Assembly: GCA_020353355.1 (NCBI GenBank)
Contig: CP070694.1
Coordinates: 2,447,026 to 2,511,025, forward strand
DNA from: Desulfobacterales bacterium
Lineage (GTDB): Bacteria; Desulfobacterota; Desulfobacteria; Desulfobacterales; JAHEIW01
DNA: 64,000 nt
Reading direction: 5' to 3'
Position 1 is the first letter of the stretch, and each line of letters opens with the position of its first letter. The translations under genes were made by a program, and so were the position numbers. Below, piece by piece: positions 331 through 62,555 of this stretch. The notes beneath the pieces were generated by a model that saw only the letters and a program-made list of their open reading frames with translations, had not been told where the DNA came from and ran no database searches.

Positions 331-1344
331 TTATGCCCACACACCATCAATGTTGGCACCACATGTGGTGCAATGCCCGTTTTCCATCCTCAATTTCCCC
401 ACCTGAAATCCCCACCGCTCGATGACCATCTGCCCGCAGTTGCAGCAAAACGTATTTTCACCCTCATCACCCGGCACATTGCCGGTATAGACATATTTTA
501 GACCGACACCTAAACCAATTTCTCGAGCTATTTTAAGGGTTTCCACCGGTGTAGAGGGTCTATCGGTCAATTTATAGGTCGGGTGAAAGCGGCTGATATG
601 CCAGGGTGTTTCGGATCCCAGATCATTTCTAATGAAGGTTGCCAGCTCCTTTAGTTCAGCCCTCTCATCATTTAGCCCGGGCACAATCAAGGTGGTGACT
701 TCCACGAAAATACCAAGGGATTTCATTAATTTTAAGGTTTCCAGGACGTGTTTGCGTTTCGCCCCACAGAGCTCCTTGTAGTATTTATCGCTGAAGGCTT
801 TCAGATCCACATTGGCCGCATCCAGATACGGATTGATCATGTTGAGGGCTTCGGCAGTCATATACCCGTTGGTCACAAAAACGTTGCGGATTCCTTTCTG
901 ATGGGCAAGTTTGGCGGTATCATAGGCAAACTCAAAAAAAACGGTCGGCTCGGTATACGTATAGGAGATGCTTTGGCAGCGGCCCCTTTCAGCTCCAGCG
1001 ACCACTTCCGATGGTGCAAATGACTCTCCCATGATAGCGCCCTTGTGATCGGTTGGCATCTGGGCAATATCTGCATTCTGGCAAAACCGGCATCTGAAAT
1101 TACAGCCAACCGTAGCGATGGAATAGGATAAGGTTCCGGGGAAGAAATGAAAAAGGGGCTTTTTTTCGATGGGATCGATATGTCTGGCAATTAGTTTGCC
1201 GTATACCAGGGTCTTTAATATTTCGGAATGATTTTCCCTGACACCGCAGATCCCCCGGCGCCCGTCTTTAACAACGCATCGATGGCTGCAGAGATTGCAT
1301 TTTACTTTGTTTTCCTCAAGAGGTTCATATAGATAGGCTTCCAT
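331..1344 (-). CDS. amrS: AmmeMemoRadiSam-system-type radical SAM enzyme (PflA-like activase fold)
   Basis: ORF 331-1410. Start placed at ATG 1344 (MEAYLYEPLEENKVKCNLCSHRC...) with AAGGAG at 1360-1355. Radical-SAM motif CNFRCRFC, plus an N-terminal CNLCSHRC cluster and a C-terminal CCNCG...CTTCG cluster. Confidence 0.8.
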   Translation of the reverse strand: MEAYLYEPLEENKVKCNLCSHRCVVKDGRRGICGVRENHSEILKTLVYGKLIARHIDPIEKKPLFHFFPGTLSYSIATVGCNFRCRFCQNADIAQMPTDHKGAIMGESFAPSEVVAGAERGRCQSISYTYTEPTVFFEFAYDTAKLAHQKGIRNVFVTNGYMTAEALNMINPYLDAANVDLKAFSDKYYKELCGAKRKHVLETLKLMKSLGIFVEVTTLIVPGLNDERAELKELATFIRNDLGSETPWHISRFHPTYKLTDRPSTPVETLKIAREIGLGVGLKYVYTGNVPGDEGENTFCCNCGQMVIERWGFQVGKLRMENGHCTTCGANIDGVWA

Positions 1345-1363
1345 AATTGCTTCGCTCCTTTGA

Positions 1364-1480
1364 GGAATAATGGAATGCTGGAATATTGGAATAATGAGAC
1401 ATAAAACCAAAGAATATCATTTTTATAATAGCATAATTCCTTAAACCCATCATTCCACCATTCCATTATTCCATTTTTCC
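1364..1480. repeat. Periodic inverted-repeat element (8-nt GGAATNNN units x4 per arm, about 52-nt AT-rich spacer)
   Basis: Left arm: ggaataat/ggaatgct/ggaatatt/ggaataat (1364-1395). Right arm: atcattcc/accattcc/attattcc/atttttcc (1449-1480). The right arm is the imperfect reverse complement of the left (26/32 in register). Confidence 0.75.
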
Positions 1481-1500
1481 AACAGGGGCATTAGCCCCTC

Positions 1501-8694: not shown

Positions 8695-8720
8695 TAGTCT
8701 GTAGAATTAACGTTTTTATT

Positions 8721-8806
8721 ATTCTATAATTCTTAGGATTCTAGGAAAATTCGAAATTCTAATCTCGAAATTGTTTCGAATTTCTTGCTTCGGATTTCAA
8801 GCTTTT
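8721..8806. repeat. Heptad-periodic dyad element in the dnaJ-queD spacer
   Basis: 7-nt phasing: attctat/aattctt/aggattc/taggaaa/attcgaa/attctaa/tctcgaa then attgttt/cgaattt/cttgctt/cggattt/caagctt. The GAAATTC-type units on the left are mirrored by GAATTTC-type units on the right around position 8772. Pairing between arms is imperfect. Confidence 0.5.
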
Positions 8807-8819
8807 TAGGCTTGTAGTT

Positions 8820-9191
8820 ATGTACGAATTGAAAGTGACAACCCATTTTGCGGCGGCGCATCAACTCACCATGGTCGGTGAAAAATGTGAAAATCTACAT
8901 GGCCACAATTGGAAAATAGAGGTTTATGTAACCGGAGAAAAGTTAGATCAGGCTGGTGTATTGGTGGATTTTGGCGTGATCAAAAAACAGGTCGCAGAAA
9001 TTATGTCAACGCTAGACCATCGGTATTTAAACGATCTCGAGTTTTTCCAATACAACCCGCCCTCCTCTGAAAACATCGCCTATTTTGTCGCCCAGCAGCT
9101 GCAAAAAAAAATCGACAATTCAGCTGTACATCTCAGCCGGGTCAGCGCCTGGGAATCGGATAATGCCTGCGCGACCTACATCGTGGAGTAA
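8820..9191 (+). CDS. queD: 6-carboxy-5,6,7,8-tetrahydropterin synthase QueD
   Basis: 123 aa. CENLHGHNWKIEV (Cys plus HGH zinc and catalytic motif). Size and C-terminal WES...A pattern are typical of QueD/PTPS-I. Confidence 0.9.
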   Translation: MYELKVTTHFAAAHQLTMVGEKCENLHGHNWKIEVYVTGEKLDQAGVLVDFGVIKKQVAEIMSTLDHRYLNDLEFFQYNPPSSENIAYFVAQQLQKKIDNSAVHLSRVSAWESDNACATYIVE

Positions 9192-9215
9192 TGGAATCCT
9201 GCAGTATCTGAAACC

Positions 9216-9776
9216 TTAAATAAGGGTTTTATACCGCTCCATCAAATCATCCCGCGTTATGATACTCGACACCACTTCGACATGTTTTCGAATATTATCC
9301 AATCCCCCTTCTTGCCGATCAACCAACACAACGGCCGTGACAACCTCTAAGCCTTCAGAACGCGCCCGCTCAATGGCTTTGATGGTAGAACCACCGGTGG
9401 TGGCCACATCATCAACGATGGCAACGCGCTGGCCGGCGTGAACCTCACCTTCAATCCATTTCACGATACCATGGTCCTTCTGGTTTTTTCGAATGGAGAA
9501 CGCATCAATGGGCTGGCCATTTAATTCAGATGCAAAGGCAGTGGCCACCGCCAGCGGATCCGCGCCAAATGTAAGGCCTCCGATGCCGTTGACGTGGTAA
9601 TCCTTTATCCGGTTAAAAATCAGATGACCAACCAGGTACATTCCCCGGGCGTTAAGGGTCGTCGGTTTACAGTTGACATAAAATTGGCTCATCTGCCCGG
9701 AGACCAGCTTAAATATTGGCTCATCACTGAATTGAAACGATTTGCGGCAGAGCATCTCAATTAGCTCTTCTTTCAT
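9216..9776 (-). CDS. pyrE: orotate phosphoribosyltransferase
   Basis: 186 aa. PRPP-binding loop [13 protein letters not shown]. Type I PRTase layout. Confidence 0.9.
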
Positions 9777-12961: not shown

Positions 12962-13066
12962 AGCGTGATACAAGCGTGTTTAATGGCCATAAAAGCGCTT
13001 AGAAGGACCTTGGGTTTCGCCCCGTCAGCGCTATGCTTTTTTTGTGTGGGAGTAATTGAAAAGATG

Positions 13067-13154
13067 AACGTCGAACATCGAACGTCCAACATCGAATGTT
13101 GAATGAAGAAACAGACATATGATCTGGGAGAGAGGCTGTTCGATGTTGGACGTT
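13067..13154. repeat. Heptad-periodic inverted-repeat element in the ftsX-envC spacer
   Basis: Units aacgtcg/aacatcg/aacgtcc/aacatcg/aatgttg/aatgaag (13067-13108). A perfect 16-bp inverted repeat: aacgtccaacatcgaa (13081-13096) and ttcgatgttggacgtt (13139-13154), separated by a 42-nt spacer. Confidence 0.85.
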
Positions 13155-13269
13155 TATCTTTCAAACCAATTTCGTATGGCATAAATGAAACTTGTGAATG
13201 TTTACAAAATAATTTAGCACCTATGGGGCTTTGCCCCGCTGGGTTGTAGAAACTCAAAGACGTTTACCT

Positions 13270-20338: not shown

Positions 20339-20372
20339 ATTCCAAGCATCAAATCTCATCGTTCTTTTTGCT

Positions 20373-20522
20373 GGTTTCGGGTGTCGTTTCTCTGGTTTCA
20401 GGTGTCGGGTGTCAGGTGTCAGTAACACAAGCGCTGAAACCCGCAACGCGAGACTCGTAACGCGTAACCCTGACCCCTGACACCCGACACCTACTCATTA
20501 CTGAAACCTGACACCTGAAACC
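20373..20522. repeat. 150-bp heptad-periodic composite palindrome (GGTGTCR / YGACACC units)
   Basis: Left arm: ggtttcg/ggtgtcg/tttctct/ggtttca/ggtgtcg/ggtgtca/ggtgtca. Right arm: ctgaccc/ctgacac/ccgacac/ctactca/ttactga/aacctga/cacctga/aacc. Region 20394-20422 matches the reverse complement of 20470-20492 at 22/23 positions. Central spacer is 47 nt. Confidence 0.85.
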
Positions 20523-20618
20523 TTGTTCATTGGGATTTGCTATTTAGAACTTCCAATAGTCCAGCACTCCGCTTGGTTCCAGCCGGACAGATCCAGCTAC
20601 TATGGAAAGGATATAAAT

Positions 20619-31893: not shown

Positions 31894-31931
31894 GATTGAA
31901 TATTTTTGATTGAATATTGAATATTCAATAG
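31894..31931. repeat. TTGAATATT direct repeats ending in a perfect 14-bp palindrome
   Basis: gattgaatattttt / gattgaatattgaa / tattcaatag. ATTGAATATTCAAT (31916-31929) is a perfect palindrome. It lies between the gcdA stop and the M23 peptidase start. Confidence 0.6.
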
Positions 31932-31982
31932 TAAATTCCGGCTTGTCCTGATTAGGGATTGCCCTAAAATTTTAGGTGCTCC

Positions 31983-61363: not shown

Positions 61364-62470
61364 ATGTCGATACTATTTGAATCCGGCAAAATCAACGGGA
61401 TGAAATTATCGAACCGATTCGTCCGATCCGCCACCTGGGAAGGGATGGCAGCCGATGACGGTGGATGCACCCCCAAACTGATTGATTTGATGGCCAATTT
61501 AGCCAAAGGCGGCGTGGGATTGATTATCAGCGGTCATGCTTATGTTCAGAAGGAGGGACAGGCGGCACCAGGGCAGCTGGGTATTTATAAAGACGAACTC
61601 ATCTCTGGTTTTCAAAACATGACAGATGCCGTTCATGCAAACGGCGGTAAAATTGTGATGCAGCTTAGCCATGGAGGATTTTTTGCCTCATCCAAACTAA
61701 CCGGACAAACCCCCAAGGCACCTTCGATTGTGGAAGGCGTGGTCAAATCACCTCGAAAAGAGATGACCGCAGACGATATCCAGCAGGTTGTCATAGCCTT
61801 CGCCGAAGGAGCTACAAGAGCCAAAAAAGCCGGCTTTGATGGCGTTCAAATCCATTCGGCCCACGGATACCTTCTCAGTCAATTTCTCTCACCGGCTTTC
61901 AATCAGCGTACCGATGAGTATGGTGGTGACATCCAAAATCGAAACAGAATTCATATCGCCGTGCTTCGGGGTATCCGGCAAGCGTTGGGGGATGATGTTC
62001 CCGTCTTGATAAAAATGAATTGTCAGGATTTCATTGACAACGGCTTGAGCATCCAGGATTCGCTTCAGGCAGCCAAAATGCTGGCCGCTGAGGGGATCGA
62101 TGCCATTGAATTGAGTGGCGGTATCCTGATCAGCAAAAAATTGAGTCCCAGTCGATTAGGGATAAAATCTGAAGAGCAAGAAGCGTATTTTCAAGAAGAT
62201 GCCAAGGTATTTAAATCCCAGCTCGACGTTCCGCTAATTTTAGTGGGCGGCAATCGGTCATTTCAGGTCGCCGAACGCCTGGTGCAAGAGGGTGTCGCCG
62301 ACTATATTTCCATGAGCCGCCCGTTTATCCGGCAGCCGGATTTGATCAAGCGCTGGAAATCCGGTGATCTGAGTAAAGCCGCATGTGTATCCGATAACAT
62401 GTGTTTCGAGCCGGGGATGAAAGGCGATGGGATTTATTGCGTAACTGCGGAAAGACAAAGAAACAGATAG
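61364..62470 (+). CDS. Old-Yellow-Enzyme family NADH:flavin oxidoreductase
   Basis: AAAGGAGG RBS. HSAHGYLLSQFLSP active-site signature. 368 aa, TIM-barrel only (no C-terminal Fe-S/FAD extension). Confidence 0.9.
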   Translation: MSILFESGKINGMKLSNRFVRSATWEGMAADDGGCTPKLIDLMANLAKGGVGLIISGHAYVQKEGQAAPGQLGIYKDELISGFQNMTDAVHANGGKIVMQLSHGGFFASSKLTGQTPKAPSIVEGVVKSPRKEMTADDIQQVVIAFAEGATRAKKAGFDGVQIHSAHGYLLSQFLSPAFNQRTDEYGGDIQNRNRIHIAVLRGIRQALGDDVPVLIKMNCQDFIDNGLSIQDSLQAAKMLAAEGIDAIELSGGILISKKLSPSRLGIKSEEQEAYFQEDAKVFKSQLDVPLILVGGNRSFQVAERLVQEGVADYISMSRPFIRQPDLIKRWKSGDLSKAACVSDNMCFEPGMKGDGIYCVTAERQRNR

Positions 62471-62555
62471 TTATTTGTTATTCGTTATTGGTTAATTGCA
62501 ATTAAAATGATGGTCTCCACTTTTTCTAATAACTATTAACTGATAACTAATGACC
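62469..62555. repeat. Heptad-periodic inverted-repeat element (NGTTATT x4 / AATAACT-type x4) filling a convergent spacer
   Basis: Left arm: agttatt/tgttatt/cgttatt/ggttaat (62469-62496). Right arm: aataact/attaact/gataact/aatgacc (62528-62555). The arms are complementary at 20/28 positions. Spacer is 31 nt. Confidence 0.8.

Follow-up and report, generated by a model that had tools for sequence, protein, structure and literature searches.

An inverted array of 8-nt words upstream of amrS in a Desulfobacterales genome, probably a miniature of a dispersed fold-back repeat family

The stretch of DNA analysed here, hereafter the window, comprises 64,000 nt of contig CP070694.1 from a Desulfobacterales bacterium (assembly GCA_020353355.1, positions 2,447,026 to 2,511,025). 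Near its left end lie two minus-strand genes, a class-I methyltransferase (2247-1501) and, downstream of it in transcription, amrS, which was identified by TIGR04337 (363 bits against a cut-off of 220). In the spacer between them, at 1364-1480, four 8-nt units, ggaataat, ggaatgct, ggaatatt and ggaataat (1364-1395, that is, 4 x GGAATNNN), are followed across an AT-rich centre of 53 nt, free of any open reading frame (ORF), by four inverted units, atcattcc, accattcc, attattcc and atttttcc (1449-1480). The first-pass annotation had described two such arms, and the letters at these coordinates, Tandem Repeats Finder (TRF), which calls period 8 for both, and a repeat finder all agree with it. The last of these gives inverted arms of 33 nt with 82% complementarity and 51 nt between them or, in a register shifted by one unit, arms of 26 nt with 88% complementarity. 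Along the transcript the order is stop codon, small GC hairpin (1498-1485), G-rich arm, centre, G-free arm, 3 nt and AAGGAG, with a distance of 20 nt from the methyltransferase stop to the element. The parts are as follows.

1485-1498, minus strand: small GC hairpin, AGGGGC-TAAT-GCCCCT, flanked by the methyltransferase stop (1503-1501) on one side and the 5' arm on the other
1449-1480, minus strand: 5' arm of the transcribed strand, GGAAAAAT GGAATAAT GGAATGGT GGAATGAT; G-rich, adjoining the upstream stop codon
1396-1448, minus strand: centre or loop, 53 nt, AT-rich, not conserved among family copies; its innermost part prolongs the arms as GGGTTTAA
1364-1395, minus strand: 3' arm of the transcribed strand, ATTATTCC AATATTCC AGCATTCC ATTATTCC; rich in C and devoid of G, with 3 nt between it and the amrS Shine-Dalgarno sequence
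1342-1360, minus strand: amrS ribosome-binding site (AAGGAG, 1360-1355) and start codon (ATG, 1344-1342), conserved in a genome of the same genus, G001

The transcribed minus strand of 1364-1480 folds at -41.7 kcal/mol (z -5.7) and the plus strand at -31.7 kcal/mol (z -4.8). The spacer has no promoter-like site, and 1200-2400 has no terminator-like site; Rfam 15 gave 0 matches at gathering score across the whole 64-kb window.

The genome is a metagenome-assembled genome (MAG) scaffold of 5.31 Mb with 47% G+C, 716 gaps of exactly 100 N and a stated completeness of 84.7%, and block-wise dinucleotide shuffles served as controls. Enrichment over such shuffled DNA, the check that had been proposed for this type of element, was pronounced. 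TRF returned 1079 rows of period 7 (about 250 in the shuffles) and 361 of period 8 (about 170), and arrays of at least three copies numbered 800 against about 50 for period 7 and 174 against about 18 for period 8. Periods 10-11 stayed at shuffle level, the enrichment being confined to 7 and 8. Between 91 and 92% of these arrays are intergenic, and they are present in 495 of 2586 spacers of at least 60 nt (~19%). Inverted pairs of the same unit within 200 nt occur at 133 loci, compared with 19 direct pairs and ~0 expected by chance; the 3-13 inverted pairs found in shuffles all come from N-containing blocks that were left unshuffled. Pairing is short-range, with 123 inverted and 17 direct pairs at less than 200 nt and equal numbers beyond 400 nt, and a sensitive partner search finds 36-50% of 922 arrays to be paired. 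Across the whole genome (G000), 27 scaffold gaps adjoin a 7-8-nt array, and it follows that these repeats break assemblies.

It had been thought that the array loci of the window share architecture and nothing else. Their unit sequences do differ, but genome-wide each of the five unit types proved to be a multi-copy family. Arrays of the GGTGTCA type number 105, followed by AAATCCG (54), CAGGGTT (52), CAGGTTT (48), AAATTCG (47) and GTTATTT (39), with 25 each of the GGAATAAT and AATTTAGG types; altogether the genome has 40 or more unit types, in some 10-15 families. Arrays of at least three GGAATNNN units stand at 74 loci. The unit of this GGAAT family is TGGAATRN, an 8-nt period made of the 6-nt core TGGAAT and two free positions. 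Its copies share an arm plan, (TGGAATRN)n and then TGGGTTTA, and do not share the centre; all of the 17 strict pairs read 5'-GGAAT...ATTCC-3', never the reverse. At 2 other copies the G-rich arm is likewise preceded by a GGGGC..GCCCC hairpin such as that at 1485-1498.

In the CGAAATT family, to which the window locus at 8745 belongs, the element has an orientation, measures about 150-190 nt and has arms of about 60 nt; the order AAATCCG AAGCACG AAATTCG AAATTCG AAACAAATTC... is kept over about 50 copies, with the AAGCACG variant on one arm only throughout. Some copies are solo arms and some contain other small repeats as nested inserts; composite arms are also seen, with GGTGTCA outside and AATTTAGG inside. 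The conserved unit order, the one-arm variant, and the solo arms and nested inserts lead us to conclude that the copies derive from master sequences rather than from independent local invention, and that these are sequence families spread by copying. A conserved loop was considered and rejected, since the centres have in common only nested pieces of other word families. One ~40-nt hairpin insert, GGTTCGACNAGCTCACCACCCTGAGNNAAGTCGAAGGGCAA, is nested at the identical point within CGAAATT-family arms at G000 C1:703164, 2029846 and 3029942, a yet smaller repeat housed in a repeat.

The placement of the arrays is far from uniform. They occupy 21% of co-directional and 19% of convergent spacers and only 11% of divergent ones, and they lie mostly right after stop codons and within or behind operons. 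Of 499 arrays, 115 begin 0-11 nt past a stop codon and 40 overlap the stop; start codons, in turn, are kept at a distance of about 15 nt or more. Paired elements lie a median of 43 nt past the upstream stop.

The arms also have a fixed polarity. Of 135 pairs, 114 have more G than C in the 5' arm; among unit types, 39 are G-rich-first and 5 are not, these five exceptions being CpG-containing, A-rich units of one superfamily with its own fixed polarity. The rule holds in every spacer class (co-directional 86:17, convergent 15:2, divergent 11:1), and solo arrays obey it as well: near stops the sense strand is G-rich in 118 cases to 38, and near starts it is C-rich in 56 to 22. It also holds in 154 orthologous amrS loci of other genomes. 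Two reasons for the polarity may be suggested. A G-free arm ahead of a start codon contains neither ATG, GTG or TTG nor Shine-Dalgarno-like words, and a mode of copying that extends G-rich 3' ends would give the same rule.

Only one kind of gene was found between the arms, and it is not a known transposase. It belongs to PF05635, the Avd-like 23S-rRNA-intervening-sequence protein family, which has 7 hits in the genome. Each of the 3 intact copies away from gaps (5064556-5064921, 2073123-2073491 and 4478004-4478495) lies between inverted arrays with the G-rich arm 5'. These loci (G000 C1:5064462-5065070, 2073092-2073627 and 4477958-4478530) encode proteins of 121-163 aa and have arrays of up to 11 units, and the arms of the last are of the GGTGTCA family, as at the window locus 20373. 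One of the three has a second, direct array right behind the gene. Two short PF05635 remnants have arrays alongside when judged by eye (GATACTA-type at 3797223, CGAAATT-family arms at 697902); both failed the formal flanking test.

The association extends beyond this genome. Among 30 PF05635 loci of eight other genomes, 17 are bordered by arrays left and right and 16 by inverted arrays of the same unit, and 18 further loci yielded six or seven more array-flanked cases. By the same criteria, 36 of the 4899 genes of the genome (0.7%) are array-flanked; among genes of 600 nt or less the figure is 7 of 1873, and 3 of these 7 are PF05635 genes. ORF-bearing copies are known for the GGTGTCA, GAACATC, AATTYAGG, CGAAATT and GTGTTTG types, those of the GAACATC family lying in G114 and G096. 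Full-length copies of several families thus carry a PF05635 gene in the centre, and decayed remnants of it between arms occur. PF05635, a four-helix-bundle protein, resembles Avd of diversity-generating retroelements (PMC10053308). In the rRNA intervening sequences from which the family takes its name, terminal inverted repeats form a stem that encloses an S23p ORF; these sequences are excised by RNase III and suspected to be remnants of mobile elements (PMC4990558). Arrays of 9-nt words (TAAAGTGCC, AAATGCCTA / ATTTTAGGC) flank PF05635 genes at L221-L223 and L226 in genomes G058 and G022, so that word length is not restricted to 7-8 nt.

Orthologous spacers give a view of the element over time. 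The nearest genomes have 81-82% AmrS identity, and genome and metagenome scans for a closer relative in which to compare presence and absence found none nearer than 82%. G001, of the same genus, is syntenic with the window over 40 kb at 70-80% nucleotide identity. Its methyltransferase-amrS spacer is 35 nt long and aligns on both sides of the element, with only GTGGGGCC at the position of the small GC hairpin and, by the conserved ribosome-binding site, a single unit, CCATTATTCC, which is the last unit of the 3' arm and the only part of the element retained. This spacer indicates that the element is dispensable and changes length in place. Another genome, G002, has an unrelated 397-nt spacer before amrS, and a second genus has an orthologous 4-unit solo array there. 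Elsewhere in the window the comparison is similar: in the 8695-8819 spacer G001 has AAATTCG and three GATTTTG units, at 9174-9248 its AATTTAGG pair is complete, compared with just TAATGGAATCC in the window, and at 20339-20618 the hairpins of the window and of G001 belong to different families. A site can therefore stay long occupied by one family while unit number and pairing change. The G001 hairpin orthologous to 20339-20618 has the arm plan of the CGAAATT family with every CG replaced (TTGGTGCTTGGAATTTGGAATTT vs TTCGTGCTTCGAATTTCGGATTT), which suggests a concerted change of the whole family or of a sub-family.

At a wider scale, the GGAATRNT family lies at many non-orthologous loci in genomes of the same genus and the same family and is patchy within the order (26 of 151 genomes), sometimes with identical 29-mers. 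Across the 154 orthologous amrS loci, arrays occupy 22% of upstream and 19% of downstream spacers and none lies inside the gene; these values equal the base rate, and we reject the idea that the amrS spacer is a hotspot. Long solo arrays fill the amrS spacer up to the start codon at L027 (Desulfonema magnum 4be13, GAATTGA x11), at L038 (AAGCTGA x9) and at L053 (Olavius symbiont Delta 3), where GCCAACGG x8 fills the spacer upstream of the gene.

From these observations we favour, with modest confidence, a reading in which 1364-1480 is probably a miniature copy, lacking an ORF, of a fold-back repeat family dispersed through the genome, and dispensable cargo rather than a dedicated regulator of amrS. 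The family is one of some 10-15 in this genome that share one design, namely a 5' array of G-rich 7-8-nt words, a variable centre and a complementary C-rich array 3'. The array-enclosed PF05635 copies make the window hairpins look like ORF-less miniatures, and the short hairpins would then be internal-deletion derivatives of PF05635-bearing cassettes. They may persist because an insert that folds on itself is tolerated between cistrons: a roughly 30-bp RNA stem would return the upstream stop to the vicinity of the downstream ribosome-binding site. By analogy with the rRNA intervening sequences, such a stem would likely be a substrate of RNase III. At the amrS locus, the element would be carried along as cargo and have no dedicated part in amrS regulation.

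Several observations weigh against this reading. No PF05635-bearing copy with TGGAATRN arms turned up among 55 loci (including those in G022, G058 and G096), so that for this family the link to PF05635 is by analogy only. About 50 aligned CGAAATT-family copies show no direct repeat outside the arms that could be a target-site duplication, and arm alignments and long-range pairs revealed neither a transposase partner nor near-identical recent copies. The same-family units left at "empty" orthologous sites fit long residence and change in place as well as, or better than, recent insertion, and a 6-nt core conserved together with two free positions in distant genomes could reflect a binding protein. 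The scaffolded nature of the MAG, with its 716 N gaps, and our home-made gene calls are a further caveat. An autonomous transposon with such ends was sought and rejected, arm pairs 400-6400 nt apart being no more frequent than the direct-repeat background, PF05635 cases excepted.

Might the arrays instead be double-stranded DNA binding sites for small oligomerising proteins, of the ribbon-helix-helix or IHF/HU kind, whose pairs serve in regulation or in structuring the nucleoid? Ribbon-helix-helix operators do have 7-8-bp periods, as in the omega heptads, the MetJ metboxes and the ParG boxes. The restriction to periods 7 and 8, the TGGAAT core kept with its two free positions in distant families of the order, and the lack of strand bias relative to transcription would all suit such sites, and Aklujkar et al. 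proposed binding sites for the paired repeats of Geobacter (PMC2700814). Against this, divergent spacers, where promoters lie, are occupied half as often as the others (11% versus 19-21%), and the arrays abut stop codons and sit within operons. Dozens of unit types would call for dozens of proteins, and the site is missing from the same-genus ortholog. The asymmetries, nested inserts and solo arms look non-functional and resemble decaying mobile DNA. We therefore consider binding sites an unlikely explanation.

Local origin is, in our judgement, similarly improbable. Here a 7-8-nt seed would be amplified by replication slippage, the inverted arm would be made by template switching within the strand (quasi-palindrome correction), and families would be only apparent, reflecting favoured seeds. 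The first-pass annotation had raised slippage plus inversion, and the part of this idea that concerns change of copy number in place has stood, given the single unit in G001 and the likeness of adjacent units, which differ by 1.74 compared with 2.28 for non-adjacent ones. Unit number varies between orthologous spacers, single same-type units remain at three "empty" sites (in G001 or in the window), relatives contain very long perfect arrays, and polymerase slippage is the idea advanced by Mrazek for heptamers (summarised in PMC4679880). The dispersed families do not fit. About 50 copies have in common the order of variants along some 60 nt and a variant confined to one arm, identical 29-mers recur both in this genome and in those of other families within the order, and the arms flank a specific gene family, PF05635, far above baseline. 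Only 10.6% of adjacent units are identical, and, contrary to what templated correction would give, the arms of one locus are no better matched to each other than to those of other loci.

The third alternative sees in the hairpin an RNA element under selection in the methyltransferase-amrS transcript, acting as stabiliser, RNase III site, attenuator or means of translational coupling, with the tandem words incidental; a structure-selected element had also been suggested at the outset. The setting invites this idea, as the hairpin lies between co-directional genes, ends 3 nt from the ribosome-binding site and folds 10 kcal/mol better on the transcribed minus strand. Folding is strong both here (z -5.7) and at 20374-20523 (z -10.4), and such roles have been suggested for hairpins of the STRR (short tandemly repeated repetitive) type that lie between hupS and hupL (PMC2670836). 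Genome-wide, however, the sense strand folds better in 54 of 103 co-directional pairs and the antisense strand in 49 (p = 0.9), which is no bias, and a hand tally of the oriented CGAAATT family gives 23 sense to 22 antisense. When the covariation check was run on duplex energies, same-locus arms paired no better than cross-locus arms of the same family in 5 of 6 family groups; the remaining group gave a weak covariation signal (p = 0.03) that is explained by its mixture of sub-families. A T-run follows the stem in only 11 of 137 pairs, and none is predicted at 1364-1480. The absence of strand bias and of arm covariation and the scarcity of T-runs leave no sign of compensatory stem maintenance or of terminator action. 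Nor does Rfam hold a match, and the spacer of G001 does without the hairpin and that of G002 is unrelated. We think it improbable that the hairpin is kept for its RNA structure.

Two narrower proposals were rejected: a Rho-independent terminator, given the few T-runs and the lack of a terminator-like site in 1200-2400, and a known RNA family, given the lack of an Rfam match. The free positions of TGGAATRN units, taken with the preceding T, spell a stop codon (TAA, TAG or TGA) in 55 of 95 units against 37.5% expected, and the recurrent arm GGAATAATGGAATAGTGGAATGATGGAAT carries all three stops, which the 8-nt period puts in three reading frames. A three-frame stop module was rejected all the same, because GGTGTCA, the largest family, has no stop on its G-rich strand and the enrichment in TGGAATRN is only mild.

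The first-pass annotation knew of no described family with these properties. Published kin do exist, in Xanthomonas (PMC4692102), in Geobacter metallireducens (PMC2700814) and among the STRR sequences of cyanobacteria (PMC2670836). Rehm et al. (2015) described heptamer arrays, of GGGAATC in Xanthomonas campestris and X. citri and of GGGGA(C/T)T in Nostoc (PMC4692102). In Xanthomonas, 70-75 convergent pairs face each other on opposite strands, and the strand with the G-rich repeats is the coding one behind ORFs and the non-coding one in front of them (PMC4692102). As here, the units are tandem and 7 nt long, about 90% intergenic and nearer the upstream ORF, with a unit number that varies among relatives, and the same convergent pairing, one array of the unit on each strand, is seen at our 133 loci, with the G-rich arm 5' in 114 of 135 pairs. 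The two systems differ in that Xanthomonas has one unit type per genome and this genome 40 or more (about 10-15 families). The Xanthomonas units form G-quadruplexes, for which a run of at least three G is needed, whereas TGGAATRN has only GG. In the xanthomonads 83% of sites are common to both, and here most sites have been remodelled between the two genomes of the same genus; Rehm et al. reported no link to PF05635, while here the gene lies between the arms in several families. A broader class of long simple-sequence repeats of 5-11 nt, with heptamer arrays beyond chance, had been recognised earlier (Mrazek 2007, summarised in PMC4679880), and the arrays described here show both its beyond-chance length and its intergenic placement near the upstream ORF.

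The paired "global regulator binding sites" of Geobacter metallireducens, classes 1-3, are similar in architecture (Aklujkar et al. 2009, PMC2700814). Like the elements here, they have three to five tandem 7-9-nt units per strand at variable distance, are intergenic, fall into several classes with tens of pairs each and are missing from the sister species. Their units, GTTGCTYN, TCTCCGTS(Y) and MTYCTGA, are not among the 40 commonest unit types here. They were found by BLAST in one genome and read as IHF/HU sites without a test, and polarity and gene content were not analysed. The STRR heptamers of filamentous cyanobacteria include the hupS-hupL hairpin (PMC2670836, citing Mazel et al. 1990). 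They too are 7-bp spacer repeats that form hairpins between co-transcribed genes, for which transcript stabilising or translation coupling has been proposed; they differ in phylum and units and are mostly described as single arrays.

Among known mobile or formerly mobile sequences, the intervening sequences (IVSs) of 23S rRNA in Coxiella and Leptospira (PMC4990558) resemble the full-length copies, having terminal inverted repeats and a long stem around a PF05635 gene. IVSs are sporadic, are regarded as selfish or formerly mobile, and their ORF decays (PMC4990558). They lie in helices 25 and 45 of 23S rRNA, whereas the elements here lie in mRNA spacers, and their stems are not described as tandem word arrays; the amrS element has the long inverted arms but no ORF. 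Further resemblances are to REP/BIME sequences, REPIN-RAYT systems and MITEs (miniature transposable elements with inverted repeats), which are small, non-coding, hairpin-forming, multi-copy and intergenic, with conserved arms and a variable centre, and are rarer in promoter-only spacers. REPs and REPINs are short palindromes rather than tandem word arrays, and the repeats that flank RAYT-like genes in this genome are different ones. Of the features that define MITEs, the terminal inverted repeats, small size, multiple copies and lack of an ORF are found here, but a target-site duplication and a transposase-encoding partner with the same ends are not.

It is tempting to speculate that the Desulfobacterales hairpins, the GGGAATC pairs of Xanthomonas, the cyanobacterial STRR, the Geobacter sites and the ORF-bearing IVSs of 23S rRNA form one unrecognised fold-back class, although we regard so wide a unification as distinctly tentative and rather doubtful as a whole. 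Were it correct, the full-length form would carry an Avd-like PF05635 pentamer that recognises the word arrays, and the short hairpins, the one at amrS included, would be miniature derivatives. The G-rich-first polarity and the 7-8-nt period would be signatures of the copying mode, in which, for example, G-rich 3' ends on the two sides of a break might be extended or an RNA-mediated step be involved.

What is firmer is that the amrS element is a further member of a kind already in the literature from Xanthomonas, Geobacter and cyanobacteria, where it is left without explanation. Such arrays (STRR, GGGAATC, TAACTGA, the Geobacter "regulator sites") have been treated as scattered curiosities with no established mechanism; here, 7-8-nt arrays are present in about one fifth of spacers, and orthologous spacers of 154 related genomes and contigs are occupied to a like extent. 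Three results help to make the puzzle testable: the arms behave as dispersed sequence families rather than as structures maintained by compensatory change, the G-rich-first rule holds across about 40 unit types and all gene contexts, and full-length copies enclose an Avd-like PF05635 gene. It can now be asked whether the arrays are bound by the PF05635 protein, whether stems in mRNA are cleaved by RNase III and whether whole elements move. For annotation, the elements account for many long "empty" spacers, for MAG contig breaks and for spurious ORF extensions at stop codons.

The window contains five further array loci.

8745-8806, plus strand: compact copy of the CGAAATT/CGGATTT family (instance 2 of the first-pass annotation); weak fold, z -0.7
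13066-13156, plus strand: GAACATC-family hairpin (instance 3); z -5.1
20373-20523, plus strand: GGTGTCA-family hairpin (instance 4); -74.6 kcal/mol, z -10.4 (folded 20374-20523)
31895-31935, plus strand: ATTGAAT array (array 31909-31930) with a short self-complementary end; a sixth locus, missed at first reading
62469-62552, plus strand: GTTATTT-family pair (instance 5) that fills a convergent spacer; z -2.7

The design had been said to recur at 8721, 13067, 20373 and 62469, and all four loci exist; folding is uneven, with z from -10.4 to -0.7, and strong at only 3 of the 5 loci that were named. The recurrence also stands, but its frequency, put at 5 of roughly 35 spacers, becomes, with the array at 31909-31930 included, 6 of 42 (29 of these at least 60 nt long), a count that rests on our own gene calls and agrees with the genome-wide 19%.

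Transposase-like genes of a different kind are also present. The genome has 9 Y1_Tnp hits, and a RAYT/REPIN link to the word arrays was rejected, as the Y1 genes with recognisable flanks carry inverted repeats of the GGGGACGTC or GTGGGAGCGGC type and none carries word arrays. All searched genomes of the order have several copies of proteins of ~330-350 aa that carry a Y1-transposase domain at the N-terminus. In G000, AAGGGGACGTC / GACGTCCCCTT inverted repeats bracket Y1-domain genes at C1:2299745-2300743, 4560098-4561081 and 1127900-1128937, and REPs of the GTGGGAGCGGC type bracket a RAYT-like gene of 153 aa at C1:888285-888746.

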